Source: a virus. Taken from it: a stretch of 61,919 nucleotides of DNA. The notes under the pieces were generated by a model, which had not been told where the DNA came from, ran no database searches, and was given only the letters and a program-made list of their open reading frames with translations. Both the position numbers and the translations under genes were made by a program. Each line of letters starts with the position of its first letter. The stretch's first letter is position 1. The stretch covers positions 1 through 61,919 of the IMG/VR virus record IMGVR_UViG_3300034025_000033, one strand, 5' to 3'. Below are positions 15,920-47,875 of this stretch, in pieces.

Positions 15920-15920
15920 C

Positions 15921-18146: not shown

Positions 18147-18156
18147 GGAAACGACA

Positions 18157-19476: not shown

Positions 19477-19479
19477 TCC

Positions 19480-25787: not shown

Positions 25788-26130
25788 GCAGGGCAAGCTC
25801 CATCAGGAATGCGAGGGTGATTTCTTCGTCGTCGAGGTCGAGCGCGGCGCGCGCGTCTTGCTCGTAAGCACGACTATGATAAGGGCTTGCCTCCGCTTGC
25901 GGCGAAATTTTGGCAACCGTCGCCACTCTTGCCGCACTGGTGCGGCGCACGCGGCCGCCGCTGACGATCGCTTCGGCCTCGTCGTCGTGGTTGTCGTTCG
26001 GATTGGCGCGCACGTCCATCTCGGCCCAGCCGACGCACGGGCGCGACGGCCGGGTATCGAACTCGGCCCAGCCGATCTTCGGCGTCGGCGCCAGCGCATC
26101 GAATACGGCAAAGCCGATGCGGGCGGCCAT
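25780..26130 (-). CDS. Small acidic protein with (I/V)GWxE(F/M)D repeats (116 aa)
   Basis: IGWAEFDT and VGWAEMDV, plus the tail DDEEITLAFLMELALHV. Paralogue of 33406..33705. Its stop overlaps the next gene's ATG (CATGTCTAA). Confidence 0.7.
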   Translation of the reverse strand: MAARIGFAVFDALAPTPKIGWAEFDTRPSRPCVGWAEMDVRANPNDNHDDEAEAIVSGGRVRRTSAARVATVAKISPQAEASPYHSRAYEQDARAALDLDDEEITLAFLMELALHV

Positions 26131-26919
26131 TTATTGAGCCTCGAAGCGCAGGCGCAGATCGGTGTAGTCGGTGATGCTGTCGCACTGGATCGGCGTCAGT
26201 GCCTGCGCAAACTCGGTCGGCGTCGTCGGCAGCACCGGATGATCCCACCTGGCGATCATGGCCGCGCCCTGCATCAGCCTGACGACCATGCCCCCGGCGC
26301 CTTCGTCCCATACCTGATAACGCACCTTCTGGCCTGCGCTCGATTCCGGATCTTTTACTGGCCCCAGCCGGATCTCGCAATAAGCATTCGGGTTCGGTTC
26401 CGGCGCATAAATAAAATCGCTGCTTTTCGGATTCGGCTCGTCGATCATCGACGCCAGCGTGGCGCCGGCCTGCGACGGCAGCCAGTTGCCTGTTGCCACG
26501 TCGGCATAGGGCCGTGCAAAGCGCGCCGCCGTTTCCACCTCGTCGGGCGGATTGATGATCGCTTTCGTGATGACGGCCAGCGCCAGCGCGGCCGATACGA
26601 GATTGCCGCTGTCGCGCGCACGCACGCGGGTCTGGTACGTGGTCGCCGGCTGGCGCCCGCCAAACGTGGCATTGAGAACGTTGCCCACGTCGCCCCATGT
26701 TGCGCCACCGTCCAGGCTGACTTCGTAAGTGGCGACACCGACATCATCGGTCGCCGGTGGCCACGCCAGCGTAAAACTGTTGGTGCCGACAACGGGTGCG
26801 GTCAGTTCGCCGGCGAGGAAGGGCGGCGCATTGGCCGGGCCGCCGCCGTTGTCGACAAGGCCCTGGTCAACGAATACCGCGTCGTCGCCGCTGCGGTTGG
26901 GCAGGAACAGGCGGTCCAT
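26131..26919 (-). CDS. Tail-associated protein: FN3 domain plus conserved 130-aa C-terminal domain (262 aa)
   Basis: FTLAWPPATDDVGVATYEVSLDGG...YQTRVRARDSGN is FN3-like. The C-terminal 130 aa are paralogous to the C-terminus of the 513-aa protein. Confidence 0.75.
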   Translation of the reverse strand: MDRLFLPNRSGDDAVFVDQGLVDNGGGPANAPPFLAGELTAPVVGTNSFTLAWPPATDDVGVATYEVSLDGGATWGDVGNVLNATFGGRQPATTYQTRVRARDSGNLVSAALALAVITKAIINPPDEVETAARFARPYADVATGNWLPSQAGATLASMIDEPNPKSSDFIYAPEPNPNAYCEIRLGPVKDPESSAGQKVRYQVWDEGAGGMVVRLMQGAAMIARWDHPVLPTTPTEFAQALTPIQCDSITDYTDLRLRFEAQ

Positions 26920-29393
26920 TATTCCACCACCACCGGGCCGGAAAACGCTTTGTGATTGATCGCCGGGTTGCCGGTGTCATCACTCACATCGAGGCGTCCG
27001 ATGTCGCCGACCCAAAGGCTTGAATTCGGCAGCGGGATCAGGATTTCGCCGTTCGCATCCGTTGTCTCCGTTGCCCCCTTATCGGTCGGCGCTCCGATCA
27101 GATCCAGCGTCGGCTGGTCGAACCACGCATAGCGCAGGCCCGCCAGGTTCGGGATCGGCACCTTGACGCCGCCTACGAACTGGGTCAGCCGGAAGCGCAC
27201 AAACGGCGCGCGCGGCGTGAACGATTCCGATGGCTCCGACGGCTCGCTGGCGCCGACTTCATTGATGGCAACGACCGTCACCGTGGCGGCAACGTCGCGC
27301 GGCAGGTTGATGCGTACCGGGCTGTCCTTCCCCTCTGCCGTTTGTCCGCTTGATGCAGTCACGCGGAACGAGTTGACAGGCCAGCCGCCATCGTTGACGG
27401 GCGCGGTGAAGAACACGAGCGCATAACCGTTGCGCGCCTGCACCGTCACGTCGGTCGGGGCGTCTGGCGCGCTGCCCGGCGTGACCGGCTGCGACGGCAG
27501 GGATGCCGGCCCCGGACCGTTGGCGTTGATGGCAACGACGGTTGCCGTCACTACCGTGCCGTCTCCAGCCTCGACGACGATCGGGCTGCTGCTGCTGCTG
27601 GCCGTCTCGCCGTCCGATGTGGTGACGCGGTATTCGATGACAGGAGAACCGCCGTCGGAGAGGGGCGGCAGGAAGCTGACGAGGATGGCGCCGTTGAGGG
27701 CCGACGCGGAGACGTTGCGCGGCGCGCCGGGCACGCCAGGGGCGGGCGTAACCTGGTTGGAAGGTGCCGACTCGGGACCGAAGCCGACGACGTTTTCAGC
27801 GGCCACGGTAACGGTCAGCGACGCGCCGTTCGGGGCATTCAGCGGAATCGGGCTGGCCTGCCCGGTTGCCACCTGGCCGGTCGAGGCGGTGACGCGGTAG
27901 CCGGTAATTTCCGCGCCGCCGTTGCTGGCCGGCTCGGTGAACGACACCCTGACAATGCCGTTTCCGGCGGTAGCCGTGACGTTGGACGGGGCGCCGGGCG
28001 CTACGGCGTTCGGGGCGGTGCCAGGGCCGGAGCCGCCGCCGGCCACGCCCATGATGGAAAACGGCGTACCGTTCGCCGTGACATCGCCCGATTCGTTCGT
28101 TGCCGTGACGACGACATCGTATTTGCCCGGCGCCACCGCTTCAAACTGCGCCGGCACGGTGGCGGCATTGACGCTGTAACTTGGCGTCACGGTCAGCGAG
28201 CGGCTGACGGCGCCATCGCCTTTTGCCACCAGGTCCACCACCAGCGTTCTGGCGCGCTGGAAGGCGATCGACAGGCTGACGTTCTGGCCGTCGGGCGGGT
28301 CTTGTGTCGCCACGCTGACGCTCGGCCTGGGCGGCGCGGTCGTGACGGTGATGCTGTCGACCAGGGACGTGTTGTTCGAATAGCGCACTTCCAGCAGGCC
28401 GGTCGATGGCGTTGTGGCCGGCATCGTCCCGGAGAAGCTGCCGCCCGACGGGCTGGCCACCAGCGTTACCCAAGTTCCGCCCTTGAAGCGCGCCTGGATG
28501 CTCGTCGGCGTGCTGCCGGAATAAGTGCCGGAAACCAGGAACCCTTCGCTGTTGACGGTTGCATTCGGCACCGGGCCGGTGATCTTGATGCCCGGCGCCA
28601 CCACGGCCATGTTGTCGTAGCCGGCGTATGGGTCGCGCCGGTGCTGGATGACTTCGGCCTGGCTCAGTGCCCGGTTCCATACCGTATCGTCGATCAGGAT
28701 CAGGTCGCTGGTGGAGCTGCCGGCATAGCCGTGATAGGTGCCGGACGACGCGCCGGTCCATGGTCCGCCGCCGGTATTCAGGCTGTTCGACGTGCCGGCA
28801 ACAGCCAGCACGTCGTTGACGTAGACGCTGACGGTGGTTCCGTCGCGCACCATGTACAGGTCGACGATCGAGCCGAACGGGACGCGCAGATTTTCAGCCG
28901 TGCGCGCCGAGACGACGGGGAAGGACGTATGTTCGCCGAATATCCAGAAGAAGCACACATAGCCATCGGCTGATTCAACGGTCGACAGCGTGATCTTTAC
29001 GCCGCTGGCGTTGGAATAGCGGGCGATGGCGCGTACCGACGTGGTCGTGAAAGCCGACGGCGCCCGGTAGCGGTGATGGAGGGTGAACGGCCCGTTGTCG
29101 CCGATTCCCAGCCTTGACAGGTCCATGCCGCGGTACGCCTGCACGGCGCCGCTCTTGTTCTGGCTGATGTCGCGGCCGTAGATGCCGGGCGCTGCCAGCA
29201 CGGTCGGGAAGTTCGCGCCGGCGTCCTTGGTCAGCGCATGGGTGCCGGCGTGCGGCGCGCCGTCACCGCCGGCAAACCCGCTACTCGGGTCGCCCGCATA
29301 GTCGAACGCGGACGTGATCCCGGCATTGAGCGAATACTGGGTCGGCGTCTTGAGTTTAAGGGGATAGATGCGCAGGTTGCGGTCAATAGCCAT
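26919..29393 (-). CDS. Tail fibre/spike-like protein: LamG-like domain plus three FN3 domains (824 aa)
   Basis: ...VYVNDVLAVAG...LILIDDTVWNRALSQAEVIQH is Laminin_G_3-like. Three consecutive ~88-aa FN3 units follow. Confidence 0.8.
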   Translation of the reverse strand: MAIDRNLRIYPLKLKTPTQYSLNAGITSAFDYAGDPSSGFAGGDGAPHAGTHALTKDAGANFPTVLAAPGIYGRDISQNKSGAVQAYRGMDLSRLGIGDNGPFTLHHRYRAPSAFTTTSVRAIARYSNASGVKITLSTVESADGYVCFFWIFGEHTSFPVVSARTAENLRVPFGSIVDLYMVRDGTTVSVYVNDVLAVAGTSNSLNTGGGPWTGASSGTYHGYAGSSTSDLILIDDTVWNRALSQAEVIQHRRDPYAGYDNMAVVAPGIKITGPVPNATVNSEGFLVSGTYSGSTPTSIQARFKGGTWVTLVASPSGGSFSGTMPATTPSTGLLEVRYSNNTSLVDSITVTTAPPRPSVSVATQDPPDGQNVSLSIAFQRARTLVVDLVAKGDGAVSRSLTVTPSYSVNAATVPAQFEAVAPGKYDVVVTATNESGDVTANGTPFSIMGVAGGGSGPGTAPNAVAPGAPSNVTATAGNGIVRVSFTEPASNGGAEITGYRVTASTGQVATGQASPIPLNAPNGASLTVTVAAENVVGFGPESAPSNQVTPAPGVPGAPRNVSASALNGAILVSFLPPLSDGGSPVIEYRVTTSDGETASSSSSPIVVEAGDGTVVTATVVAINANGPGPASLPSQPVTPGSAPDAPTDVTVQARNGYALVFFTAPVNDGGWPVNSFRVTASSGQTAEGKDSPVRINLPRDVAATVTVVAINEVGASEPSEPSESFTPRAPFVRFRLTQFVGGVKVPIPNLAGLRYAWFDQPTLDLIGAPTDKGATETTDANGEILIPLPNSSLWVGDIGRLDVSDDTGNPAINHKAFSGPVVVE
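27213..28001 (-). repeat. Three tandem FN3-encoding units
   Basis: Units at 27744..28001, 27477..27743 and 27213..27476. Each reads AP..P.NV.a....g...VsF..P..dGG..i..YrVt.s.G......sP......g...tvtVvA.N..G.g..S.ps..vtP. Confidence 0.8.
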
Positions 29394-32200
29394 TAGAGAG
29401 TCTCCACGTCGTCTGGATTAGGGGATTGCAGGAACGCATAAGCCGTCGGGATGGACCACTCCATAAGTGCCAGCGAGCGCTGGGTGGTGCCGCTCGCTGC
29501 TGCGCTCTTGATGCGGTCGTCCCATTGCTTGTGGAAGTCTTCGACGATGTCGGCCGCCTCCTGCACTTCATCCCACGAATACAGGCACGGGATGTCGTGG
29601 AAGAATTCAAGCCGGAGCTTCGGCCAGCTGGCGCGCAGCTGCTCCGACGAGTCCGGGCCGCGGAATGATCCATCCGAACGGTGAATCCAGTCTTCCTGCC
29701 CGGCCCCAGGGTATTTGCGATCGCGCCAGTCGCCCCAGTTCAGGGGAATGTCGGGGTTGTTCAGGACGGTATGGTCGATCGGGATGAAGGGCGCGCCGTT
29801 ATACACGTCGCCGTTGCCGCCGATATAGCTGCCGCGCGTCTGCGTGAACCACTGGATCGATCCGGCGTCGAGCATGCGGATAAGCATCAGCAGGGCTTTC
29901 TGCGACGCCTCGCTCTGGTTCCACATCTTGTTGAACAGGCCGAACTGGCGCATCTTGAGCAGGGCGCCTGCCATGTAGAAGGTCAGGCCGAACGAGGTCG
30001 AACCCCAGCGGCTGCCATTCCACCTGTGCGGCACGCCGAACCGCTTCATGATGACGAAGTGCGGATCCTGGCTGTTTTCCACGTACATCGGAAGGTAGTA
30101 TTCCTGATAAACCTGGTTCAGCTCGATCGCCAGGCGTGCTTCGATGTCGGACTGGCGCACGCCCAGCACCGGATGGTCGGACGCCAGCTTCCACATGGTC
30201 GAATGCTGGAGAATCTTCCAGGCGTGCTCGCGGCTGCCGACATAACCGCCCGCCGACGTGGTCGGGCGGCTTTCGCCCAGTCCGATCATCAGGTGCGCGA
30301 TATAGCGATGCTTGGCCGAGAAGGCGTGCGCCGGGCTGTTGTAGTGCATGGCCACGTCGCCCGGGGTCTGGTAGTTGTGCAGGTTATCCGGAGCGTAACC
30401 GTTCCATGGCAAACGGTAGTTGGCGTCGCAGAACTGGCCGCCATGCGGGCGTTGCCCGTTCGACGCGAAGCTGCCCAGGCGCGAGGCGAACAGGGGAACG
30501 GCGTAGTTGGTGCCGCCGGACGTGTAGCTGGAATTCGGACCGTAGAAGGTCCGGCAGTAGCTCCAGTCGCCTGCGAGAAGTTCGTTCAACGGCAGCGTCG
30601 TCATGTTGCGCACGTCCGTGAAGTAGTGGCATCCCTGGTTGAAGTAGCCCAGCTTCCAGTGCTCAAACATTTCCGAGATCGGCGTGTTGTCGCGCAGATG
30701 CACCCAGTTCGGATCCGTCAGGGCGATCATCAGCGGACCGGCCCATACGCCACGGTCAATGCGCACGCCGCCCGGTCCGGTGGTCTGGTCGTGCATGCAG
30801 TAGCTGCCCGGCTCGTAGCCCCAGCCCATGACGCGCGCGGCGCCGTAGCTGACTTCCCCGAAGTCCGACGCGGGGATGCCGTGCACTGCCGCCCAGTCGG
30901 GCGTCTGCATGTAGTTGTTGACCGTGCTGCCGGGGTTGATCGGGTACAGGTACGGGTCCAGCGACAGGTCGGCGCGCACGGCGTCCTCGTTGGCGGCGTT
31001 GGCCCACTTGCCGCTGGCGAACCAGTGCTGCCAGCCGTGGTTTCCGCCCGAATTGCCGGCCATCGGCATCACGCCGGCATAGGCGGCTTTTTCCTTGCCG
31101 AGACTTGGGCGCACGGCGCGCATGTCCATACCGGGGAACCACTTCTTCGATTTCGCGCTCATCTTCGGCTTGTGCGACTGCCAGAACAGCATCTGTCCGC
31201 AATGCATGTGCGGGCGCAGCGGCTTGGTCTTGGTCGGCACTTCCGACAACTGCGACGAGTTGATCGGCAAATTGTCGCGGTTCATGTCCCAGGTGTGCAT
31301 CAGGGCATTGCTGCCGTTGTACAGCTTGGCCTTGAACGCTTCGGGGAAGGTGTTGGAGACGCCATACGTGACCGGAGCGTCGAACGTCTTGGAGCCGAGC
31401 CGGTAGCCGCTGTAACGCGGGTAGTTCGGCCAGTTCTGGCCCGGTCCGCTGGTCGGCTTCATCATCACCAGAACCTGGTGCAGCGTGCGCCCGCCTTCGG
31501 CATTGGCGGCGGCGTTCATGGAGAACATGATGGCGCCGAATTCGATGTCGATATAGGTGACGATGCCGGTCGAATTCGTCACGCGCACATCACCCATGCC
31601 GGCGGCGATTTCCGGATCGGTGAACGTCCAGTTGTCCAGGCGGTTGTTGAACGGGATGCGGCCCACTTCGACCACGTTCTGCGGGTTGCGCCAGTCCTCG
31701 ATGACCACGTAGGCCGGGGCATCGTCGCCCAGCGCCGGCGGCGAGTAGCCGGTGCCCGACGGCAGGAACGGCGGCGGCTTGATGCGCAGGTTCGGCGTCA
31801 CCGCGATGCTGTTGGTGGTGGTCGGGTTTTCCGGCACCAGGAAGTCCGCATTCGATCCGGCCAGGCCCAGTCTGCCCTCGATCCAGTTGCCGTTGCCTTC
31901 GATGCGCAGGACGGCCACGCCGGCGGCAAGGTCGGCCGCCAGGGCAGTCGTTAGGTTCGACGTGGTGCCGTAGGAAGTGACGATGCCGCCCTCGATTGCC
32001 ATGTCGCCGCTGATGGCGGCGTCGCGGAATTTCGTGCCGCTGGCGTAGGCGTTTTCTTCCGGCGTGCCGGCAGGAGCAATCTTGCAGGTCACGCGCCGAC
32101 TGGCGCCCAGCCCGTTTTTGAATGCTGCCGACCACGCATTGTTGCTGATCGTTGCCGCGCTCAGGCTTGCGGCAAATGTAGGATTGACGCGAAGTGTCAT
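29393..32200 (-). CDS. Large W/Y/H-rich virion protein, candidate polysaccharide depolymerase / tailspike (935 aa)
   Basis: An N-terminal beta-rich region is followed by about 650 aa with enzyme-like composition (many W, H, Y, N, G). It is flanked by receptor-binding-type genes. No motif was recognised with certainty. Confidence 0.7.
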   Translation of the reverse strand: MTLRVNPTFAASLSAATISNNAWSAAFKNGLGASRRVTCKIAPAGTPEENAYASGTKFRDAAISGDMAIEGGIVTSYGTTSNLTTALAADLAAGVAVLRIEGNGNWIEGRLGLAGSNADFLVPENPTTTNSIAVTPNLRIKPPPFLPSGTGYSPPALGDDAPAYVVIEDWRNPQNVVEVGRIPFNNRLDNWTFTDPEIAAGMGDVRVTNSTGIVTYIDIEFGAIMFSMNAAANAEGGRTLHQVLVMMKPTSGPGQNWPNYPRYSGYRLGSKTFDAPVTYGVSNTFPEAFKAKLYNGSNALMHTWDMNRDNLPINSSQLSEVPTKTKPLRPHMHCGQMLFWQSHKPKMSAKSKKWFPGMDMRAVRPSLGKEKAAYAGVMPMAGNSGGNHGWQHWFASGKWANAANEDAVRADLSLDPYLYPINPGSTVNNYMQTPDWAAVHGIPASDFGEVSYGAARVMGWGYEPGSYCMHDQTTGPGGVRIDRGVWAGPLMIALTDPNWVHLRDNTPISEMFEHWKLGYFNQGCHYFTDVRNMTTLPLNELLAGDWSYCRTFYGPNSSYTSGGTNYAVPLFASRLGSFASNGQRPHGGQFCDANYRLPWNGYAPDNLHNYQTPGDVAMHYNSPAHAFSAKHRYIAHLMIGLGESRPTTSAGGYVGSREHAWKILQHSTMWKLASDHPVLGVRQSDIEARLAIELNQVYQEYYLPMYVENSQDPHFVIMKRFGVPHRWNGSRWGSTSFGLTFYMAGALLKMRQFGLFNKMWNQSEASQKALLMLIRMLDAGSIQWFTQTRGSYIGGNGDVYNGAPFIPIDHTVLNNPDIPLNWGDWRDRKYPGAGQEDWIHRSDGSFRGPDSSEQLRASWPKLRLEFFHDIPCLYSWDEVQEAADIVEDFHKQWDDRIKSAAASGTTQRSLALMEWSIPTAYAFLQSPNPDDVETL

Positions 32201-32901
32201 TGTTTTGGCTCGCTGGTAGTTGCTGGGTGCAAGGTAAAGGACTCGATGCGCTTCTTGCTGTCGCGCTTGGCGATGGCGCGGTAGCGCTTGCCGTCCTTCG
32301 TGATCGTCAGTTCGCTAATGCGGTCGGACAGGTCGCGCGTGACGCCGGCCTGCATGGTGACGGCGCCGGTGATGGAGACGGCGGCGAGCCGGTCCTTCTT
32401 GTCGCGGGCGACGGTGGCCACGATCGGGCCGGTGGGCGCGGGCTTCGCGGCGGGCGCCGGTTCGGTCTTGGCGATCGGCACGGCCGCGCCAGGCGGGCGT
32501 AGGGGCATGTCGATGAAGCGCGGCGGCGCGGCTGGTGCTGGCTCAGGTTGAGGCGCTGGCGCTGGCGCTGGTGGCGGTGGCGGTGGCGGCGCGGCGGGCG
32601 CGGGCGCGGGCGCGGGCTGCTGCGCCTGCTTTGCGATCGCTTCGACCAGGCTGCGCACGGCTTCGTTCGTGGCGCGCACGGTGTCGGCGGTGGCGCGCAG
32701 CAGGGCGCGCGCTTCGTGGTCGACGACCGGGGCGGCTGGTGCTGGTGGCGCAGGCTTAGGCGCAGGCGCTGGTGGAGGCGGCGGCGGCGGCGCTGGCGGT
32801 GGTGGCGGTGGTGGCGGTGGCGCGGGTGGCGCGGGCGGCGGCGCGCGGCCCGTTACCTTGTGCAGCTCGGCAGTACTCTTGACGCGGATCGTCGCCATCA
32901 T
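32197..32901 (-). CDS. Extreme proline-rich protein (234 aa)
   Basis: ATGATG is at 32901..32896, in ATGA overlap with the upstream stop. Two Pro/Ala runs are present, including PPPPPPPPP and PPPPPPP. The C-terminal ...RDSKKRIESF is paralogous to the 95-aa ORF tail. Confidence 0.7.
   Translation of the reverse strand: MMATIRVKSTAELHKVTGRAPPPAPPAPPPPPPPPPAPPPPPPPAPAPKPAPPAPAAPVVDHEARALLRATADTVRATNEAVRSLVEAIAKQAQQPAPAPAPAAPPPPPPPAPAPAPQPEPAPAAPPRFIDMPLRPPGAAVPIAKTEPAPAAKPAPTGPIVATVARDKKDRLAAVSITGAVTMQAGVTRDLSDRISELTITKDGKRYRAIAKRDSKKRIESFTLHPATTSEPKQ
32521..32616 (-). repeat. Hexanucleotide tandem repeats encoding Pro/Ala run 2
   Basis: Plus strand (ggcgct)x3, (ggtggc)x3 and (gcgggc)x3 in direct succession. 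Confidence 0.85.
32728..32841 (-). repeat. Tri/hexanucleotide repeats encoding Pro/Ala run 1
   Basis: Plus strand ggcggcggcggcggc and (ggtggc)n / gcgggtggc blocks. They encode a 38-aa stretch of P, A and one K. Confidence 0.85.
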
Positions 32902-33416
32902 CCGCCCTTCATGCACTTCAGGAGCGCGGTCAGGTTGGCAATGTCGTCGTTCACGGCGGCCAGCACTTGGTCGGCGGGAATCTGTTCCTGCGTCGTGATG
33001 CCGGTTTCCTCGTTGAACACGTCGGTGCCGATGCGGACCCTGGCATAGAACGCCAGCGGGATGTCTTCGCCGGTGTCGGGCGCTTCCTCGACGGCTGGCG
33101 CTGGTTCGGCGGGTTCGGCGGCCGGCTCTGGTTCTGGTTGCGGCGCCGGTTGCGGCTCAGGCTCAGGTGCAGGCGCGGCAGCAGGTTCTGGCTGCGGGCG
33201 CCTGGCGCCGCCCTGCGCCTCGTACTGCTCGCGCACCAGGCGGATGATTTTCTGCTCTTCCATGCGCGCCAGCGCCAGCTTGTCGCGCACGACCTGACGG
33301 AGCGCTTCTTCCGGCTCCATGCCGGCCGCTTGGTATTTCCCGGCCAGCGCGCGCAACTCGGCAATGGGCAACTTCTTGTTCAGGCCCAGCGAGCGGACGC
33401 AAGTATTAAAAGACAT
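32898..33416 (-). CDS. Chimeric virion protein: N-domain of the PLxRFG protein plus C-domain of the 985-aa protein (172 aa)
   Basis: The N-terminal 71 aa (MSFNTCVRSLGL...VREQYEAQGGA) align with 1448-aa residues 1-73. The C-terminal 59 aa (DIPLAFY...DDIANLTALLKCMKGG) align with the 985-aa C-terminus. A Pro/Glu/Ala linker lies between them. Confidence 0.75.
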   Translation of the reverse strand: MSFNTCVRSLGLNKKLPIAELRALAGKYQAAGMEPEEALRQVVRDKLALARMEEQKIIRLVREQYEAQGGARRPQPEPAAAPAPEPEPQPAPQPEPEPAAEPAEPAPAVEEAPDTGEDIPLAFYARVRIGTDVFNEETGITTQEQIPADQVLAAVNDDIANLTALLKCMKGG

Positions 33417-33705
33417 GGGCGATGATCTCCATCAGGATGGCGTGGATGATTTCCTCTTCGTCGTCCGGCTCGACGTTGAGCGGAATATCGTATTGCCGAC
33501 TGGAATCGTAATGATATCGCGCAACCCCGGCGCCGGGGTGGTAAATCGGCACCGGCTCGGCTGTTGGTGACTTCGCGTCGAGTTCGGACCAGCCGACATG
33601 GACGCGAAACGGCCGGGCCTGCACGTCGAGCTGTGACCAGCCGACGTTGACGCGCATGGGCGACGCTTGAACATCCAGGCCGCCCCAGCCGACGAAGACG
33701 GCCAT
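33406..33705 (-). CDS. Small acidic protein with VGWxxLD repeats (99 aa)
   Basis: VGWGGLDV, VGWSQLDV and VGWSELDA, plus the tail DDEEEIIHAILMEIIAHVF. TAATG junction upstream. It overlaps the next ATG (CATGTCTTTTAA). Confidence 0.7.
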   Translation of the reverse strand: MAVFVGWGGLDVQASPMRVNVGWSQLDVQARPFRVHVGWSELDAKSPTAEPVPIYHPGAGVARYHYDSSRQYDIPLNVEPDDEEEIIHAILMEIIAHVF

Positions 33706-35246
33706 TACAGCGCCTCGAACTGGTGGCGCAGGTCGGAATAATTCGTGATGCTCGCCGCCTGCGCCAGCGTCAGGCGCTGCGCGTAGATGGTCGGCGTGGC
33801 CGGCAGCGTCGCATGCACCCATTCGGCGATCTGGCGGTTGCCCTGCATCAGACGCACCACGATACCGTCGCCGGTGTCGCTCCATACCTGGTAACGCATG
33901 ACGTGGCCTTCGTCCGTGCCCGGATCGAATACTGGGTTCAGCAGCACTTCGCACAGGCCCGGCGTTGACGCGCGGATGTAGGTTGTGGCATCGGCGCTCG
34001 GCTCGGACAGCATGGCAGCGAGAGAATTGCCAGCCGAAGGCAGCCAGACGCCGGGCGTGCCGATCTGCAGCACATCTTCTGCGGGCCGTCCATAGCGCTT
34101 GTCGACGTTGCTCGTGACCTCGGCGCTGTCTCCCTCGTTGGACTGCGTGCCGTTGCTGCCGCCCAGGTTCTGCGCTTGCGTGATGGCGCCGCCCGTGCCG
34201 CTGTTGCCTTGTTCGCCATCGGTGCCCTGGACCTGCTGCTGCGCGACGATATCGACGGCGCCGCCAGTGCCGGTGTTGTCCTGGTTGCCGTCGCTTCCGG
34301 CCAGATTCTGTTCCTGGCCAATGGCGCCAGCGCTGCCGGTGTTGGCAATCGCGCCGTTTGTGCCGCCGAGATTTTGCGCCTGTGTGATCGTCCCGCTGGT
34401 GCCGGTCGCTCCCTGCGATCCGTCGGTGCCGACCAGGTTCAGGGGCGGCGTCGTAGTAACCGGAGCAAGTCGGGAGTAAGGAAAGACGGGAGGCGCCGCC
34501 ATGATTTGCTGCGGGTTGCGGTAGAAGTTGTCGATCTCCCGCTCGGCCAGCGCCCGGCCGCCGATGAATGTCGCGTTGAACAGCTGCGCATTCATCGACT
34601 GGAAGCCGTACGTGCCGCCGCCCATCAAGTCCAGCGGTATGGTGTCCCCAGTGGCCAGCGGCCCGGACAGGGTCGACGTGAAGGACCGGGACACGACGCC
34701 CTGCGGCGTTCCATCGTTGAGAAACACACGACAGTGCGAGCGAATCTTGATCTGCGTGCCGCCATCGTAGGTAATCCCCAGAAAGACGCGCGCGTAGGTT
34801 CCGCTCTGACTCCACAGGTCATAGTTGAAGTCCTGGCTATACGTGGCCAGTTGGATACGCCGGAATGCTGTAGCGGTCAGCAGAGTGAACTGAGTGCGGG
34901 GCCGGGCTGAACTGTCGCCGAAACTGAATACGCACTTGCCGCCACTGTATGAAACGTCGCCTTGCCAGAATTCGACAATGATCGTGCGCGCAACGGCACC
35001 GGCCATGCCCAGTTCGGACGGCAGCAGGCCGGTGCTGATTTTGCCGACGCCGGTTCCCATGGCAGCCTTGCCCATCGGGTCGGGCTGCAGGACCGGGCCA
35101 GTCGATACCCCCAGGCCGGGCCGGCCGCGCACTGCTGATTTAAAATCGCGCACCAGCGGAAAATGCGCGGTGACACTGCGGCCAATTGGCGTGCCCGCCG
35201 AAACCTTCGTGCCGGCTGGCAGTCGGCGTGAATAGTCGCGGGCCAT
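33705..35246 (-). CDS. Tail-associated protein: LamG-like domain, Q/N/G quasi-repeats and the conserved 130-aa C-terminal domain (513 aa)
   Basis: ...FNATFIGGRALAEREIDNFYRNP is LamG-like. Repeats QAQNLGGTNG / QEQNLAGSDG / QAQNLGGSNG lie at about 34130..34440. The C-terminal domain is shared with 26131..26523. Confidence 0.8.
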   Translation of the reverse strand: MARDYSRRLPAGTKVSAGTPIGRSVTAHFPLVRDFKSAVRGRPGLGVSTGPVLQPDPMGKAAMGTGVGKISTGLLPSELGMAGAVARTIIVEFWQGDVSYSGGKCVFSFGDSSARPRTQFTLLTATAFRRIQLATYSQDFNYDLWSQSGTYARVFLGITYDGGTQIKIRSHCRVFLNDGTPQGVVSRSFTSTLSGPLATGDTIPLDLMGGGTYGFQSMNAQLFNATFIGGRALAEREIDNFYRNPQQIMAAPPVFPYSRLAPVTTTPPLNLVGTDGSQGATGTSGTITQAQNLGGTNGAIANTGSAGAIGQEQNLAGSDGNQDNTGTGGAVDIVAQQQVQGTDGEQGNSGTGGAITQAQNLGGSNGTQSNEGDSAEVTSNVDKRYGRPAEDVLQIGTPGVWLPSAGNSLAAMLSEPSADATTYIRASTPGLCEVLLNPVFDPGTDEGHVMRYQVWSDTGDGIVVRLMQGNRQIAEWVHATLPATPTIYAQRLTLAQAASITNYSDLRHQFEAL

Positions 35247-35249
35247 GGC

Positions 35250-35621
35250 TTACGGCACCTGGCGCGCCAGGTAGACCTCGACCGTTACGTTCTGCGACGT
35301 GTTGCCGAATGCCTTGGCGGTATAGCTGGGATAGGCACCGGTAACAGTGATCGAACCGCTCTGGCTGTCGCTCGCTATCACGCTGCCCGTCACGCGGTCC
35401 AGTTCATAGAGGCGCCCGGCGGCGCTGACGCCGTAGAATATCAGCGTGACACCCGTACCAGGGGGCGTGGCGCCGTTGGTAATACGGTAAGAGAAGCTGA
35501 CGGTATAGTCAGCGAACGGGCCGACGGTTGCGCCAACGCCGGCGACATTGGGCGCCGCCTCGGTCCCACCGAACGGAATGACGGTGCCAGCAGCGAGAAT
35601 GGTTGCTTCTTGCAGGTTCAT
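35250..35621 (-). CDS. Virion-module hypothetical protein (123 aa)
   Basis: ATGA-type coupling (35618..35621). Beta-rich G/T/V/A composition. Confidence 0.7.
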   Translation of the reverse strand: MNLQEATILAAGTVIPFGGTEAAPNVAGVGATVGPFADYTVSFSYRITNGATPPGTGVTLIFYGVSAAGRLYELDRVTGSVIASDSQSGSITVTGAYPSYTAKAFGNTSQNVTVEVYLARQVP

Positions 35622-36127
35622 TGTGCGCTCGCTTCAATTTGATCGATGGCCGCTTCCACCTGGAGGCGATCGACGACGACAGGCACGCGGGCGCTCCCCT
35701 TGAGGATCGACACCGCGGCGCCGTACTTGGTCGGGTTGGTCGCGGCGATCAGGTCCATCATCTGCTGCGTCCTTTCCGACCCTATGTCGAGTCCGTCGCT
35801 GTCCTCCAGCCAGTTATGCGCGCTGGCCAGGGTGTCGAGGTAGGCGAAGTGATGTTCCGCCGGCACCTTCATCTGCGTGAGCACGACGACGAATTCGGGT
35901 GGCAGTTCGCTCGCCGTGCTCAGTTGCCTGAGCAGGATCAGGAAGTTTGCCGCGTCGAGCACCGGCAGCAGCCCGCGCACGCCGCGCGAAGTAATATGCT
36001 TCGGAGCCAGTTCGGTGACGCCTTCGGCGTTGAGCGCGTCTGCCAGCAGGTCCAGTTCGCGCGCAGCGATCAGGTCGGCCAGGTCGGGGCGCGCAAGCAG
36101 GCGCGCGCTGATGGTGGGCGTGGCCAT
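35618..36127 (-). CDS. Virion-module hypothetical protein (169 aa)
   Basis: Start at ATG 36127 (MATPTISARLL), 4 nt after the upstream stop. The longer track ORF upstream is Pro/Arg/Ser shadow sequence. Confidence 0.65.
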   Translation of the reverse strand: MATPTISARLLARPDLADLIAARELDLLADALNAEGVTELAPKHITSRGVRGLLPVLDAANFLILLRQLSTASELPPEFVVVLTQMKVPAEHHFAYLDTLASAHNWLEDSDGLDIGSERTQQMMDLIAATNPTKYGAAVSILKGSARVPVVVDRLQVEAAIDQIEASAQ

Positions 36128-36131
36128 GGCG

Positions 36132-36521
36132 TCAGGTCGGGTAATTGCTGGTGTACGACAGGGCCGGGAAATTGATCGTATTGCCGGCCGTGACGGGCAT
36201 GTCGGTCGATTCGTCGGTGACGTACAGCACGCGGTTGTCGGACGAGACGAAGGCGAAAGCCAGGTCGGCGCCGGTGATGGTCGCCGTTGCGGTCGAGCCG
36301 GCTTTGCCGTTGAACGTGCAGCGGCGATTGTCGCCGACGCTGGTGATCGCGCCGAAGTCGGCGGCCGTGATCGCCGCTTCGGCCAGCTTGCTCGCTTCCA
36401 CACTGGCATAGCTGGCGTTCTTGACGTAGTTCGGCACCAGGAGGATGCGCGAAGCGGTCGCTTTCAGGTAGGCGCAGCCGTTGTCGAGCAGGTCGGGGTG
36501 GGCGTGGCGTGCAATGGTCAT
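36132..36521 (-). CDS. Virion-module hypothetical protein (129 aa)
   Basis: Clean ORF with beta-rich composition. Confidence 0.7.
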   Translation of the reverse strand: MTIARHAHPDLLDNGCAYLKATASRILLVPNYVKNASYASVEASKLAEAAITAADFGAITSVGDNRRCTFNGKAGSTATATITGADLAFAFVSSDNRVLYVTDESTDMPVTAGNTINFPALSYTSNYPT

Positions 36522-36529
36522 GGTGGTCC

Positions 36530-36817
36530 TTATTCGATAACGTGAACGATGATGCGCGACAGCCTGCCTTTGCTGTCGCGCTCGGGAATGGCTTCCAGAC
36601 GCGACGGCCTGGCGGGCGGTTTCAGGGTGGCCAGCATCTGCGGCAGCGCAGCCATGTGCTCGGCCATGTGCGTGATGGCCTGCTGCATGGCGACTATCTG
36701 CGCGCTGTTGTCGGGCACGGCCGGCACGGGAAGCGGCGCCGGTGCTGGCGCGGATGGTGCCGGGGTGGGCTTGACGCCCCGGGCGCGATTGATGTCGTCG
36801 CGGGTCTTTACCAGCAT
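36530..36817 (-). CDS. Proline-rich small protein (95 aa), short paralogue of 32197..32901
   Basis: It starts 1 nt after the ...ALLKCMGG stop. KPTPAPSAPAPAPLPVPAVP. The tail RDSKGRLSRIIVH compares with RDSKKRIESFTLH. Confidence 0.65.
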   Translation of the reverse strand: MLVKTRDDINRARGVKPTPAPSAPAPAPLPVPAVPDNSAQIVAMQQAITHMAEHMAALPQMLATLKPPARPSRLEAIPERDSKGRLSRIIVHVIE

Positions 36818-36818: not shown

Positions 36819-39776
36819 TCAGCCTCCCATGCACTTTAAAAGCGCTTCCAGGTGCGCGATGTCGTCGCGCGTGGACTGGAGCGCATCGCCGGCGGCGACA
36901 TCGATCGTTTCGGTGCCGGCCTCGCCCTCGATGTGGACTTCGTGCGGCACCTTCACCTGGAAGTAGAAGGCCAGGGGGATGTCGGCGCCGTCGTCGCGGG
37001 CGGGTTCGGCTTCGACAGGGGCGGGTGCTGGCGCGGCTTCCTCGCTTCGCGCTGGCGTGGCTTCTGGCGTGGCGGCGGCTTCTGGTTGCGCATTCGGTTG
37101 CTCCTTTGCGGCGCCTTTATCGCGCCTCTTTACCTTCGCATCCCCCGATGCCGCAAGATCGCGGATTGCTTGTTCGGGAGAATTGGCCATTACTGATCCG
37201 ACGCGCTCGCCGTCTTTGTTGCTGACTTGATAGGTATCAGCGCCGATGTCTTTCGCGGTCCATCCGTCGGTTGCGCCTGGCTCTACCTGCGCGGCGCGCG
37301 CTGCGGCGTTGTCATTCGCGGTTTTCAGCTGCCCGGCCAGCTTCGCTTCCTTGTCGGCGGTGGCCTGGCGCCAGTCCGGTTTTTTCGCTTCCGGGTCTGC
37401 TTTCGCGCGCCGGTTGTCGAGCGCTTTCTGCAGCTTCGGCGTGCGCTTGTGGGTCGGGCCGTAGTGCTCGATCGCCGCTTCCAGTTCGGCGTCGGACATG
37501 GCCGGGATCAGTTTGTCGCGCCAGGCCGGTTCTGCCGTCAGTGCAGGGTCGGCGTCGGCGCCGCCAGCTGCGCGAACAGGATCAGGTTCACCAGTTGCCA
37601 CTGCTGCGTCGTCAGCGGTTCCGCGTGCTCCCGGCTGCGCTTGAGCAGCGCCAGTTCCGCCGGTTTCGCCGCTCCCAGCAGGATCAGCAAGTTGATCGCC
37701 TGTTCCTCGGGCAGCGCCATCTGGCGCCGCCAATACTGCGTTGTCGCCTGCATCGGGCGCTCCTGTGGGTGCATCGTTCGGTTGCAGGACAAAGCCGCCT
37801 TGCACGGGCAGCACAGTATGCGTATCGGTGAGCGCATCGGCCTTCTGCTTGCGCCGCGCCGCCATTTCAGACTTGAACGGCTCGCCTGCCGGGTTCATGA
37901 CCGTGAACGGGTCCATGATGTCGGTCAGCGTGGGGATCTCGGGAAGGTCGCTGGAATTCGGGATCCGGTCGGTGAGCATCGGGATTTCCGGGCGGTTCAG
38001 CGGGCTGCTGTTGGGCAGTTCCTCGTCCAGTGTCGGCACGTCCGGCAGCGGGCTGGACGATGGCAGCGTGTCGGTAAGGGTCGGGATGTCTTGCGGCTGG
38101 CCGATCTTGTCGTTCAAGACCGGGATGCCGTCGGCAGGTGCCAGCGTATCGGTCAAGGTCGGGATCGGTCCGGCCTGTTGCGCAGCCTGACGCGGGCCAT
38201 GCGGCGCCGGCTTGCCCAGTGCCTGCTCGCGCTCGGCCAACAGCGAGGCGGCGGCCTGCTGATCGCGTTGCTCCTTGCCGGTGCGGACCTGCTCGCCATA
38301 GGTTTCTGGTGCTGCTTCGCCGTTGGCATCGACGCGGATTGCGCCGCCCGGTGCTTCGCGGTCCGGTCCCGGCAGCATGCCCTGGTCACCCTTTTGCAGG
38401 GCGTCGAACTGCGCCTGCGTGTGCAGGGTCAGCCACTTCGACGGGATCACCGTGAACAGCTTGCCCTTCGGGTGCGGCACGATCATCAGGCCCATGCCCT
38501 TCGCGCCCGGCGAGCGCACCAGCGACTGGGCGTAATCGAGCGGCACGCCGTCGTGGCGCTGCCCCCATGCCTGCAGGTTCTGCTGCTCCGCTTCCTCGCT
38601 GGAGACGAATTTCTGTTCGGGTTCCGGTTCCGGCTCGATGCGCTTGCCCGTTTCCGGGTCGCGCCCCATGATCTCGCGCTCCTTGCGGGTGCGCTCTTCT
38701 GGGTCGGTGAACTGCGACAGGTAGGCAGCCAGATCCTGCTTGTGACCGACCGAGCCATCAGGGAACGAGATCAAAGGCTGCGGATCGTAGCCCAGTTGCA
38801 GAACCTGCTGCTCGATGGCGGCATTGGCCGCACGGGTAAGTGGACCGGATTCCTGCACTTTCTGCGAGCGTAAGACCGATGCCGCGCCGCCGGCGCCGCC
38901 ACCGACCAGCCCCACGCCGACAGAATCGACGTAATCGCGGATGGCGTCGGCCGTGCTCAGTTCCTGGCCCGCGCCATAGCGCTCGATGCCAGTCTGGATG
39001 CCTTCGGTGACTCCTTCGCGTGCCATGGCGCCGGGCACCTCGCGCACGCCGGCGCGCAGCATCGATTCGCCGGGCTTACGCGCACCCTTGAGCACGCGGC
39101 CCATCATCAGCGCGTCCATCGCGGTATCGACGCCGGCGGCGGCCACTGCCGAGCCGACCACGCGCGCCTTGTCCATGCCGTCGAGTTCGCGGCCTTCCTT
39201 GGCCGCTTCGTTGAGTGCTTCGGGGTAGATCGATCCGGCTTCCTGCGCCAGGTTGTTGCCCAGCAGGGCAGCGCCTGCGCCCCACTTCGCGCCCTGTGCC
39301 GCGACTTTGGACGCGACCTCGCGGGCAGCGAGCGAATTGGCGCCGCGCGCGACGACGCCGGCAATGCCGCGCTTGGCCAGCTGCGAACCGATGAAGCCGC
39401 CGACGCCGCCGGTGGCGAGCGCCTGCACCGCCTGGCCGGCGACATAGCCGCCCGTGTTGGCGAGCCAGTCGCTGCCGGACGCATCGCCTTCCAGCACGTT
39501 CGACAGGGAGTCGGAATCCTTCGTGATCGCCTGGATCTTCTCGCTGTTCTTCTGATACATGCTCAGGCCGACTTCCTTCAGCCCTTCCGAGCCGGCCAGG
39601 TCGCCGACCAGCGCGGCGCTGCCGCCGAGCGTCTGCGGCACCTGCAGCATGGCCTTTTCAAAACCGCGCGAGAAATTGCCCTGTTCCTTCTCGGGCTTCG
39701 GCGCCTGCTCCGCGCTGGCGTCCGACAGCGGGCGGTAGACAATGCCCTGCTTGGCGAGATCGGCAAATTTGCTCAT
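36819..39776 (-). CDS. Large internal-virion/ejection-type protein (985 aa)
   Basis: Gly/Ala-rich N-terminal region, six (I/V)P(T/V/M)L(T/N/D)(D/E) repeats, and a C-terminal DIPLAFY...ALLKCMGG domain. It sits in the block of large proteins after the tail genes. Confidence 0.8.
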   Translation of the reverse strand: MSKFADLAKQGIVYRPLSDASAEQAPKPEKEQGNFSRGFEKAMLQVPQTLGGSAALVGDLAGSEGLKEVGLSMYQKNSEKIQAITKDSDSLSNVLEGDASGSDWLANTGGYVAGQAVQALATGGVGGFIGSQLAKRGIAGVVARGANSLAAREVASKVAAQGAKWGAGAALLGNNLAQEAGSIYPEALNEAAKEGRELDGMDKARVVGSAVAAAGVDTAMDALMMGRVLKGARKPGESMLRAGVREVPGAMAREGVTEGIQTGIERYGAGQELSTADAIRDYVDSVGVGLVGGGAGGAASVLRSQKVQESGPLTRAANAAIEQQVLQLGYDPQPLISFPDGSVGHKQDLAAYLSQFTDPEERTRKEREIMGRDPETGKRIEPEPEPEQKFVSSEEAEQQNLQAWGQRHDGVPLDYAQSLVRSPGAKGMGLMIVPHPKGKLFTVIPSKWLTLHTQAQFDALQKGDQGMLPGPDREAPGGAIRVDANGEAAPETYGEQVRTGKEQRDQQAAASLLAEREQALGKPAPHGPRQAAQQAGPIPTLTDTLAPADGIPVLNDKIGQPQDIPTLTDTLPSSSPLPDVPTLDEELPNSSPLNRPEIPMLTDRIPNSSDLPEIPTLTDIMDPFTVMNPAGEPFKSEMAARRKQKADALTDTHTVLPVQGGFVLQPNDAPTGAPDAGDNAVLAAPDGAARGTGDQLADPAGSGETGGTGAAQAQPGARGTADDAAVATGEPDPVRAAGGADADPALTAEPAWRDKLIPAMSDAELEAAIEHYGPTHKRTPKLQKALDNRRAKADPEAKKPDWRQATADKEAKLAGQLKTANDNAAARAAQVEPGATDGWTAKDIGADTYQVSNKDGERVGSVMANSPEQAIRDLAASGDAKVKRRDKGAAKEQPNAQPEAAATPEATPARSEEAAPAPAPVEAEPARDDGADIPLAFYFQVKVPHEVHIEGEAGTETIDVAAGDALQSTRDDIAHLEALLKCMGG
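37915..38172 (-). repeat. Six IPTLTD-type peptide repeats
   Basis: GPIPTLTDTL, DGIPVLNDKI, QDIPTLTDTL, PDVPTLDEEL, PEIPMLTDRI and PEIPTLTDIM. Visible on the plus strand as a recurring tcggt(c/g/a)a(g/a)(c/g)(g/a)t(g/c)gggat. Confidence 0.85.
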
Positions 39777-46253: not shown

Positions 46254-47875
46254 AGCACCGCTTTCAGTTCGTTCGTCGTCGACGCCAGCACGATGCCGTT
46301 CACATCAGACGCCGATTCGACATCCACCGTCCAGTCATGGTGGCGCCCGGGTGGCAGCCGCAGCGGCGCTCGGTCGGCCACGGTTGCCGTGTGGTGCAGC
46401 ACGCCGTCGGCGTAGATGCGCACCGTCACGGCACCGGCGGCGAAGTCGGAGTCGACATGCAGCCAGAAGAACGCCTGCGGCTTGGCCAGCCGGAATGCCT
46501 TGCTCTTCCAGGTGCCGCTGCGCGCGGCGCCGTCGGCCGGCAGGGCGTTGAGGATCTGCGTGCCGTCGAGCACATACAGCCCGTTCTGGTTGGCGAAGAC
46601 GGCGTCGGCCGGCTGCGCCATTTCGGCGATCGTGCGGCTTTTGTAGTCGAACACGAGGCAGCCGCGCGTGGCGTCACCCTTCGTGTAGAAGGCGAAGTAT
46701 CGGCCGTCGAAGCCGGCGCCGCGCATCGAAGCCGGGTTATATCTCGCCCAGTCGGCGCGGTCGATGATGCCTTCAGTGACGACGGCCACGGCGCCGTTCT
46801 CGTACAGGGCCAGGCCGTCCGGGCTGGCGTAGAAGACGGAGTTCGCCACCGGCACCATCGACGCGGCAGAGACGCACGGCACCAGGGTCGGCAGTTTTTG
46901 TTCCGTCAGGCTCATCGAATCCGAGCCGCTGACCAGGTAGGGGAATCCTGTCGTGCCCACCAGCACGCTCTGGCCGATCGCCGCCGTGCCCATGATCTTG
47001 TGCGGCAGCGGCTTGTCGTACTTCGCCGGCCAGGCGTATGGCGCGTAGGGTTCGCAGGCGTGCAGCGTGCTGCCGACGTAGCCGACCATGATCCCGTTGG
47101 ACATGCCGGTCAGTCCTTGCAGGCCATTCGGCGGCTCCAGCCAGCCGGTCGTGGCCAGCACGTCGGGCAGCAACTGCTCGTCGCTCTTGTCGTCGGCGAT
47201 CAGGGTCTGCGTTGCCGGGTATTCGCCCTGCAGGCGCCATACCGCGCTGTTGGTGGTCGTGGCCGAGCGGTACAGGCGGCGCTTCGTGATGAAGCGCCCC
47301 GCTGGCGCGGCGCTGCCGGTGACGTTGGCGGTGTCGTTCTGGTCGAGCGTGGCCAGGGCGGCGGCCGGCGACGGCGCCGACTCTTCGCCGCGGTCGGTGA
47401 CGAACGTTTCGACGTAGGAGCGCGTCACCTGCTGCAGCTTGATGCCGGTGATCGACTCGGACAGCGCGGTGCTGAACGCGGTCTTGAGCATTGCATTGAC
47501 GCCGTCCTGAAAGGAACGGTATGCCGAATCGGCCTTGCGCACTTCGCCCTCGATCTGCGCCTGCAGGTCGATCAGCTGGTTCGTCACATCGACGTTGACG
47601 GCGCCGGTTTCGCCGCGCGGGTAGTCGTCGCGGGTGCGGAAGGCTTCGCGCCCGATCGAGTTTTGCAGCGTCTGCGCGATCGCGCGCGCCGTCTCGCTCT
47701 TCGACGTAAGCGAGGCGCCGCCGCCCTGAATGGCGCTGAACTGTGCCGCCAGCCAGGCGCTCAGGCCGTCGACGTTGACGCGCTTGCTGCCGTCGCTGTC
47801 GGTGTAGATGAAGCCGCGCACGGCGGAATATACGTCTACGCTGGGCGAATCTTCGTCGATGGTGCTGGGGATCAT
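46250..47875 (-). CDS. Tail structural protein (541 aa)
   Basis: Large conserved-looking structural ORF (…LHACEPYAPYAWPAKYD…) in ATGA overlap with the fibre gene. The exact role (tubular/nozzle) is not assignable by eye. Confidence 0.75.
   Translation of the reverse strand: MIPSTIDEDSPSVDVYSAVRGFIYTDSDGSKRVNVDGLSAWLAAQFSAIQGGGASLTSKSETARAIAQTLQNSIGREAFRTRDDYPRGETGAVNVDVTNQLIDLQAQIEGEVRKADSAYRSFQDGVNAMLKTAFSTALSESITGIKLQQVTRSYVETFVTDRGEESAPSPAAALATLDQNDTANVTGSAAPAGRFITKRRLYRSATTTNSAVWRLQGEYPATQTLIADDKSDEQLLPDVLATTGWLEPPNGLQGLTGMSNGIMVGYVGSTLHACEPYAPYAWPAKYDKPLPHKIMGTAAIGQSVLVGTTGFPYLVSGSDSMSLTEQKLPTLVPCVSAASMVPVANSVFYASPDGLALYENGAVAVVTEGIIDRADWARYNPASMRGAGFDGRYFAFYTKGDATRGCLVFDYKSRTIAEMAQPADAVFANQNGLYVLDGTQILNALPADGAARSGTWKSKAFRLAKPQAFFWLHVDSDFAAGAVTVRIYADGVLHHTATVADRAPLRLPPGRHHDWTVDVESASDVNGIVLASTTNELKAVL

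Follow-up and report, generated by a model that had tools for sequence, protein, structure and literature searches.

Tandem fibre cassettes with a conserved junction chimera, and a candidate fibre adaptor, in an uncultured podovirus-like phage

In the fibre/tail fibre assembly (Tfa) cassettes of phages lambda (stf-tfa), Mu (S-U) and T4 (gp37-gp38) and of Alteromonas phages A5 and V22 (PMC10579305), a small gene lies directly after the fibre gene. The partner is co-inherited or exchanged with the C-terminal domain of the fibre, and the cassettes are duplicated or swapped, altering host range. In the branched receptor-binding proteins (RBPs) of Klebsiella podophages, a short conserved docking peptide is proposed to dock on a dedicated domain of the T4gp10-like branching type; two sets of fibres or spikes are mounted and the gene order mirrors the assembly order (PMC6872550, PMC13352976). 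The usual view of the polyvalent DarB-like/LPD/PLxRFG proteins is that they are packaged within the capsid (PMC5512222), and one of them, the DarB-like gp69 of the Bcep22-like phage JC1, was found in virions by mass spectrometry (PMC9144972). These are the closest known systems to a locus in the virion gene module of an uncultured phage, IMG/VR record IMGVR_UViG_3300034025_000033. The whole stretch of 61,919 nucleotides (nt) was analysed and is referred to as the window. The subject here is a region of its minus strand that holds two copies of a three-part arrangement: a fibre-type protein ending in a conserved domain (C-domain), a small acidic protein with repeats of the motif (V/I)GWxx(L/F/M)D (GW protein), and a further virion protein that opens with a conserved N-terminal domain (N-domain).

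The window contains two fibre cassettes in tandem between two large virion proteins, g985 and g1448, with a conserved junction chimera, g172, where the cassettes meet. The evidence given below establishes this for the most part, and does the same for the composition of the repeated unit, which runs from a short C-terminal module (Ct) through a Pro/Ala-rich protein, variable fibre genes, the C-domain and the GW protein to the N-domain. Unit 1 (~3.6 kb) begins at the end of g985 and closes with the N-domain of g172; unit 2 (~7.5 kb) begins at the Ct of g172 and closes with the N-domain of g1448. The genes of both units, in the order in which they are read, are these (aa, amino acids):

36819..39776, minus strand: g985, a large protein of the virion (ejection-type) that marks the left boundary of unit 1; the Ct module (DIPLAFY...LEALLKCMGG) makes up its last 58 aa (nt 36822..36995) and comes after a Pro/Ala/Glu-rich linker.
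36530..36817, minus strand: g95, which opens unit 1 and encodes a small protein rich in Pro and Ala; counterpart of g239 by position and weakly by sequence.
35250..36521, minus strand: cassette P (variable), made up of g129 (36132..36521), g169 (35618..36127) and g123 (35250..35621).
33705..35246, minus strand: g513, the fibre-like protein of unit 1, with Gly-rich repeats of ~21 aa; its last 130 aa are the C-domain (nt 33708..34097).
33406..33705, minus strand: g99, the GW protein of unit 1; its start overlaps the stop of g513 (TAATG).
32898..33416, minus strand: g172, the junction chimera, whose start overlaps the end of g99 (CATGTCT); N-domain aa 1-75 (nt 33192..33416), Pro/Ala linker aa 76-113, Ct aa 114-172 (nt 32901..33077).
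32197..32901, minus strand: g239, Pro/Ala-rich, first gene of unit 2; its true start is probably the ATG at 32901, in an ATGA overlap with the stop of g172.
26919..32200, minus strand: cassette Q (variable), made up of g935 (29393..32200) and g824 (26919..29393).
26131..26919, minus strand: g262, with an fn3 domain and a C-domain (last 130 aa, nt 26134..26523).
25780..26130, minus strand: g116, the GW protein of unit 2, which combines GW repeats with a longer linker and an acidic helix; its start comes directly after the stop of g262 (TAA/ATG).
21441..25787, minus strand: g1448, a polyvalent virion protein of the 'DarB-like' type that marks the right boundary of unit 2; the N-domain (aa 1-76, nt 25560..25787) is followed by a Pro/Ala linker, LPD39 (aa 594-765) and a PLxRFG-type C-terminal region.

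From g985 to g1448 the genes are tightly packed and have a high third-position G+C content (GC). Their start and stop codons overlap or abut throughout, which suggests coupled, equimolar synthesis.

A preliminary description of this DNA had reported a segmental duplication spanning three genes, and its coordinates are accurate. The C-domain common to the C-termini of g513 and g262 (~130 aa) gives a local alignment score of 304 against 40 +/- 6.5 for shuffled sequences (z = 41), with 52% identity, and is also found by BLASTN (69% over 270 nt, E = 4e-23). The GW proteins g99 and g116 share both the (V/I)GWxx(L/F/M)D repeats and a DDEE..LME..HV tail (39% identity, z = 14, BLASTP E = 4e-9). The first ~75 aa of g172 and g1448, which are the N-domain, are about 42-43% identical (z = 21, E = 5e-15). 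At both GW/N-domain junctions there is a CATGTCT overlap, in which the His-Val of the GW protein lies over the Met-Ser of the next gene. Hidden Markov models (HMMs) of the modules identify exactly two copies of each in the window, searched on either strand, with E = 6e-43 (g513) and E = 1.5e-50 (g262) for the C-domain. All of the conserved motifs are retained in both triads of C-domain, GW protein and N-domain. Purely compositional similarity is ruled out by the z-scores and by the position-specific motifs.

The similarity is therefore real and collinear, but the repeat is not one of three genes; it is a whole fibre cassette in tandem, joined by the chimeric g172. Residues 114-171 of g172 are 46.6% identical to residues 928-985 of g985 (E = 1e-10), and the Ct of g172 shares 58% identity with the end of the corresponding protein (1871 aa) in a related phage (L001). 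The boundary modules Ct, C-domain, GW protein and N-domain are thus collinear in the two copies, and g95 and g239 make a weak fifth pair, with similarity at both ends (pairwise E = 0.003, hhalign probability 76%). The copies are adjacent and in the same orientation, and g172 joins the end of unit 1 to the start of unit 2, which is the structure of a tandem duplication.

A Pro/Ala(/Glu) linker like that within g172 is present in the parental types, after the N-domain in g1448 and before the Ct in g985. Out-of-register exchange in such GC-rich, low-complexity linker DNA would yield an in-frame chimera of the g172 type. Comparison of the sequences points to an origin of g172 by recombination of this kind, which would have taken place either in the distant past or between relatives that had diverged. 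Three lineages have the chimera intact, those of the window, L005 (172 aa) and L006 (167 aa), at ~62-66% identity, and the ratio of nonsynonymous to synonymous substitution rates (dN/dS) is 0.27-0.58 in both of its domains (NG86; the values are approximate, as dS is near saturation). In L005 and L006 a g239-like gene comes next after the chimera. Other gene callers begin g239 at its last 103 codons; the long form is backed by the L005 and L006 orthologues. Within g239 there is a dense, GC-rich, imperfect tandem repeat (32531..32870, minus coding) of GGC, GGT and GCG units, which encodes its poly-Pro/Ala tracts.

Related phages have, in an order that is largely established, a 985-type protein with Ct, a small Pro/Ala-rich protein, variable fibre genes, the C-domain, the GW protein and a DarB-like protein with the N-domain. 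The C-domain in these cassettes is either the end of the last fibre protein or a stand-alone gene. Single units in the same gene order are found in L001 (59 kb), L010 (61.9 kb), L013, L014 and the prophage L022 of GCA_036677325.1, where the unit lies beside an integrase. L012 has the same triad on a contig that stops short of the Ct module, and a divergent complete triad is present in L027, a phage of 51% GC. The counterparts of g985 in L001, L010, L014 and L022 likewise end in a conserved Ct, and homologues of g95 follow the Ct-bearing gene in L001, L005, L013, L014 and L022; L005 also has an upstream Ct and g95-like gene. The polyvalent protein of L010 is 77% identical to g1448. Counterparts of cassette P occur at the same position in L001 with 61% (g129), 31% (g169) and 27% (g123) identity, and the orthologues of cassette Q in L023 keep their order at 57-58% identity.

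The survey of synteny in related phages thus finds the triad as a recurrent unit. The earlier suggestion that its three pieces act as one unit is borne out in that a collinear, coupled triad recurs, with ~12 copies in ~11 phage genomes, but adjacency is broken in L023, where three extra genes (91, 60 and 451 aa; L023:6036-7845) lie between the GW gene and the N-domain gene. The 451-aa product has no Pfam match, and the GW/N-domain junction is an insertion hot spot in that phage.

Copy A of the triad (g262, g116, g1448) and copy B (g513, g99, g172) are 52, 39 and 42% identical in C-domain, GW protein and N-domain, respectively. In all three parts copy A is nearest to L023 (71, 57 and 72% identity) and copy B is nearest to L005 (75, 66 and 79%). 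The same nearest relative for all three parts indicates that the triad is inherited as a block. Each copy is closer to orthologues in other phages than to its partner copy, so a recent duplication within this genome is rejected. The mutual divergence of the two copies is that of the whole clade. The event is therefore old, or consisted of the joining of cassettes that had already diverged.

The GW motif extends well beyond these phages. A GW profile search of 1.84 billion representative proteins returned 147 clusters at 50% identity. Approximately half of these are proteins of ~100 aa with three repeats and an acidic tail. The others have lengths of 200-1500 aa and contain tandem repeats of 16 aa (PRxAQVSWAELEVPxA), of which at least 3-17 were matched separately, and one of these array proteins also has Peptidase_S74 and Gly-rich fibre domains. 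Pattern scans based on the GW alignment found one locus each in the metagenome and genome collections. The small proteins are acidic, with an isoelectric point (pI) of 4.8. In g99 there are three 16-aa VGWxxLD repeats (residues 1-46), a RYH..Y.IP segment and an acidic amphipathic helix (residues 80-98). An AlphaFold2 (AF2) monomer model of g99 shows the repeats as coil, with a predicted local distance difference test score (pLDDT) of 53-60, and the helix at 80-98, with pLDDT ~80, is the sole predicted structure.

Association of the GW motif with the C-domain is consistent. In 79 IMG/VR loci fetched by the C-domain alone, with ~300 kb searched on each side, a six-frame search with the GW HMM gave 11 independent clusters. 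In every one the GW sequence is on the same strand and downstream of the C-domain (11/11), and in none is it upstream. In at least 8 clusters the motif is at the N-terminus of the downstream protein. One protein, P0045, is a natural fusion in which a C-domain-like domain is followed by ten GW repeats (hhalign probability 92%), and stand-alone C-domain genes are found directly upstream of GW-array proteins in the unrelated phages L018, L020 and L097. The C-domain/GW junction differs between relatives, being an in-frame abutment, a 1-nt overlap or a 4-nt overlap. This variation fits termination-reinitiation coupling and does not fit conserved recoding; programmed readthrough or frameshifting that would join the C-domain to the GW protein, mimicking P0045, is therefore rejected.

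Some GW proteins form a distinct architectural subclass. In L025 and in a group of contigs with 43-45% GC (L028-L034, L053), three to four GW repeats are followed by a coiled coil of ~100 aa that ends in an acidic motif. The genes for these coiled-coil proteins come immediately after that for the C-domain fibre, head genes lie downstream of them, and they have no N-domain partner.

The C-terminal half of the GW protein has a different association. With the GW profile divided in two, the acidic tail (RYH..Y.IP..DEEE-helix) is found in a lineage exactly when the next gene opens with an N-domain. Tail-less GW proteins, that is the coiled-coil variants and the arrays, never have an N-domain next. 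With the N-domain as query, two IMG/VR contigs of 80 kb were found in which a small protein keeps only the tail (hhalign probability 96%; L103:3730-4011 and L104:3703-4011). It has two 'ARhhAxQGhG'-type repeats instead of GW, and the protein upstream has no C-domain, yet the tail protein still overlaps the start of an N-domain polyvalent gene. The N-terminal half of the GW protein therefore looks exchangeable. In the 4-kb contig L017 the last gene of the operon (2284-2868) encodes a 194-aa protein made up of an N-domain, a Pro/Ala linker and a basic tail without Ct, and there is no polyvalent protein in that contig. Proteins with the N-domain alone thus take more than one form.

More than 1000 clusters make up the C-domain family. 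Most are stand-alone proteins of ~146 aa, and the clusters were recovered with an alignment as the query; a single-sequence search with the 130-aa domain found nothing. The family is common in metagenomic phage contigs. None of its clusters has a Pfam annotation and there is no PHROG or NCBIfam match. In the 79 loci the domain is usually at the very C-terminus of proteins of 150-1055 aa, and two or three proteins with this end are encoded per genome in L070, L084, L089 and L092. It is the conserved end of otherwise variable proteins, in which lectin-like Laminin_G_3 domains, where present, are N-terminal to it. Of the fibre proteins in the window, g513 has PHROG matches to tail fibre and collagen-like proteins, g824 has Laminin_G_3 at aa 117-248 together with fn3 domains (Pfam), and the genes of cassette P have no Pfam match.

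An AF2 model of the C-domain from 55 sequences is an all-beta sandwich (pLDDT 91.3; predicted template modelling score, pTM, 0.85). A Foldseek search of the PDB with this model gave no significant match (best E = 0.013, best TM score 0.47), the weak resemblances being to jelly rolls of the carbohydrate-binding module (CBM), MAM and APC10 types. Assignment as a carbohydrate-binding module or galactose-binding-like jelly roll does not follow from these matches, as the best values for CBMs are TM scores of 0.26-0.47 with E of at least 0.014. In BFVD the model resembles uncharacterised proteins of 316-377 aa from Achromobacter, Serratia, Providencia and Roseovarius phages (TMq 0.70-0.78), and a weaker match (TMq 0.62) carries the annotation virion structural protein.

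Searches of Pfam and NCBIfam with the N-domain, the GW protein, g95 and g239 returned linker or low-complexity noise only; g99, g116 and the GW family have no match in Pfam, PHROG or NCBIfam. Profiles of the C-domain, the GW protein and the N-domain, as well as g935 and g985, gave nothing significant against PDB sequences. Among 50,697 deposited phage genomes there is no DNA nearly identical to the window, no megablast match to the 13.8-kb region, and no tblastn match to g513, to the stand-alone C-domain proteins or to the GW-array protein. A weak PHROG match of g985 is to the N-terminal region of the N4-type virion RNA polymerase. The protein g1448 is identified as polyvalent by its LPD39 domain (Pfam, 130 bits against a cut-off of 27, E = 1.2e-37) and by PHROG matches to 30335 and to the DarB-like 10089 (E = 6e-135); tblastn with g1448 finds DarB-like/PLxRFG proteins of 73 phages.

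The best explanation as a whole, which is given about an even chance of being right, combines the tandem cassettes and their junction chimera with a GW protein that would act as a two-part adaptor between the end of a fibre and a virion-borne N-domain protein. The 16-aa GW repeats at the N-terminus of the adaptor would dock onto the beta-sandwich C-domain, anchoring the end of the fibres, and the acidic C-terminal helix would dock onto the N-domain. One fibre set would be mounted per N-domain protein: g513 on g172 with g99 as the adaptor, and g262, possibly with g824, on g1448 with g116 as the adaptor. In this scheme the chimera would be an extra socket, its Ct mounting g172 in the virion as the C-terminus of g985 is mounted. 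A docking or assembly adaptor linking a fibre-type to an ejection-type protein had been suggested from the window alone, and the comparative data fit that suggestion. Its label of 'receptor-binding-type' for the C-domain is putative, and an anchoring role suits the conserved end of otherwise variable fibres better than receptor binding does.

Several points weigh against the adaptor. The evidence for it is gene neighbourhood and domain co-occurrence, and the structure models are of monomers. The co-occurrence may partly reflect shared ancestry and tight linkage, and it is inflated by the kinship of the sampled phages. The GW arrays of 10-30 repeats in large proteins resemble a structural shaft more than a docking peptide, and the weak CBM-like fold of the C-domain would equally fit a distal receptor-binding knob. 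A location of the polyvalent proteins inside the capsid is awkward for an external fibre platform. In L023 the adjacency of GW and N-domain genes is interrupted by the three inserted genes, and, for the larger repeat, the homology between g95 and g239 is weak.

The main rival is an ordinary cassette of a fibre and its assembly chaperone. The GW protein would be a Tfa-like chaperone or a transient cap that folds or trimerises the C-domain, the N-domain would be conserved merely as the start of the neighbouring gene, and the boundary of the duplication would have fallen behind the N-domain by chance. Much of the locus agrees with this: the layout is the classical one of a small gene directly after the fibre gene with coupled start and stop codons, the GW gene varies together with the C-terminus of the fibre, a model of the GW protein by itself leaves the repeats disordered, and known fibre/chaperone modules are swapped as units between distant phages (PMC10579305). 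It explains the link between the C-domain and the GW protein, but not the link between the tail and the N-domain, since the acidic tail goes with the N-domain rather than the C-domain and is retained beside the N-domain even at loci that lack a C-domain. In addition, the GW protein has no profile match to Tfa/Caudo_TAP-type or other chaperone families in Pfam, PHROGs, NCBIfam or the PDB, and its repeats also form long arrays in large fibre-type proteins, including the one with Peptidase_S74. A chaperone cassette is judged possible, though rather improbable.

The same arrays, with 17 or more stretches of repeat matched separately in proteins of 300-1500 aa, can be read as a trimeric fibrous shaft, for example a beta-spiral-like repeat of 16 residues. 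The small GW proteins would in that case be mini-fibres or caps that extend a C-domain knob, and the N-domain would be mere linkage. The regular 16-aa period with alternating hydrophobic residues and a Pro is in keeping with a shaft, as is the coiled coil of some GW variants (L025 and the L028 group), and an unfolded monomer model is expected of an obligate oligomer. The strict co-occurrence of tail and N-domain is left unexplained, and this interpretation is considered unlikely. Least probable of all, and thought very unlikely, is a neutral relic, in which the tandem would have arisen by evolutionary accident, g172 would be a junction fragment in decay and the second triad would serve no purpose of its own. 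Chimeric junction open reading frames (ORFs) are an expected by-product of unequal recombination, and the two copies are highly diverged. Decay is contradicted by the intact g172 of three lineages with its dN/dS of less than one in both domains, by the tight packing and high third-position GC from g985 to g1448, and by the retention of every conserved motif in both triads.

Cassette duplication, modules of a fibre plus a partner, and the mounting of two RBPs by docking peptides are all well known. The locus is different in its unannotated families, a C-terminal beta-sandwich as socket with no solved homologue, a two-part connector, a DarB-like partner and a retained chimera. In comparison with the fibre/Tfa cassettes, the GW protein lacks similarity to known chaperone families, is in two parts, with the C-terminal half tracking the N-terminus of the next gene, and has a motif that is also found in long arrays inside large proteins. 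In comparison with the Klebsiella RBPs, which the proposal resembles in having a short conserved peptide dock on a dedicated domain and in mounting two fibre sets, the proposed socket is a C-terminal beta-sandwich that is not T4gp10-like, with no Pfam match and no PDB fold better than E = 0.013. The proposed peptide is a threefold repeat on a separate adaptor of ~100 aa, and the platform would be a DarB-like polyvalent protein or a 172-aa chimera. With known polyvalent proteins, g1448 shares LPD39 and the conserved C-terminal ~800 aa, and its gene closes the virion module, as happens in Bcep22-like and Ralstonia GP4-like phages; JC1 gp69, the one detected in virions, is a distant relative. The protein g1448 differs from them in its 75-aa N-domain, which has no Pfam or NCBIfam match and is also found on short proteins (g172 and the 194-aa protein of L017), and in the dedicated small acidic partner gene that overlaps the start of the N-domain gene. 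In type III secretion effector/chaperone pairs, a small acidic protein is likewise encoded directly upstream of a large translocated protein. By analogy, the protein of pI ~4.8 may be matched to the N-terminal ~75 residues of the large protein here; there is no homology, and the system here is one of virion assembly and ejection.

The window is approximately a whole phage contig of ~62 kb, and the same sequence is present in ENA as a contig of 61,933 bp. The clade is, on most of the evidence, one of ~60-kb podovirus-like phages of GC-rich Proteobacteria; one related contig is binned to a Ramlibacter metagenome-assembled genome, which is a hint only as to the host. The virion module is on the minus strand of the window and holds, besides internal virion proteins, a tail-tip-like protein and the region of interest, the following:

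57199..58626, minus strand: large terminase.
53821..56151, minus strand: portal, ~42% identical to the portals of Ralstonia GP4-like podoviruses.
51449..52567, minus strand: major head protein.
48976..50019, minus strand: SU10-type adaptor.

Two adjoining ORFs of this module, 46250..47875 and 47891..48976 (minus strand; 541 and 361 aa), match consecutive parts of the phrog_511 'internal virion protein' profile, positions 319-452 and then 454-861. These could be a split gene or a domain insertion relative to the phrog_511 family. A recombination module on the plus strand (~15000..19500) contains, by Pfam labels, RecT (16597..17529), a YqaJ-like exonuclease, a NinB-like protein and an HNH/NUMOD4 homing-endonuclease-like gene. 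Such phage-encoded recombinases could favour the linker-mediated exchange proposed for g172.

Whatever the mechanism, the locus brings to light two sizeable unannotated families, the C-domain beta-sandwich and the GW repeat. It is also a clean example of how a second fibre cassette can be gained, here by probable out-of-register recombination in low-complexity linker DNA, and the event that added the cassette made a junction chimera that has since been kept by selection. A bolder formulation, regarded as doubtful, is that C-domain, GW protein and N-domain are an undescribed modular plug-and-socket of uncultured phages. Its beta-sandwich socket would be bound by the 16-aa GW repeats, and the two-part GW adaptor would tether fibre ends to the N-terminus of giant injected polyvalent effectors, with g172 as an evolved extra socket for a second fibre set. 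If this were true, the apparatus for host recognition would have a physical connection to the anti-defence protein that is ejected first. Should the adaptor model prove right, it would be a new docking rule for the mounting of receptor-binding proteins on podovirus-like particles, and would tie fibres to the giant DarB-like proteins, about whose place in the particle and way of delivery little is understood. It would then be useful for host-range prediction and engineering in a large group of uncultured phages.

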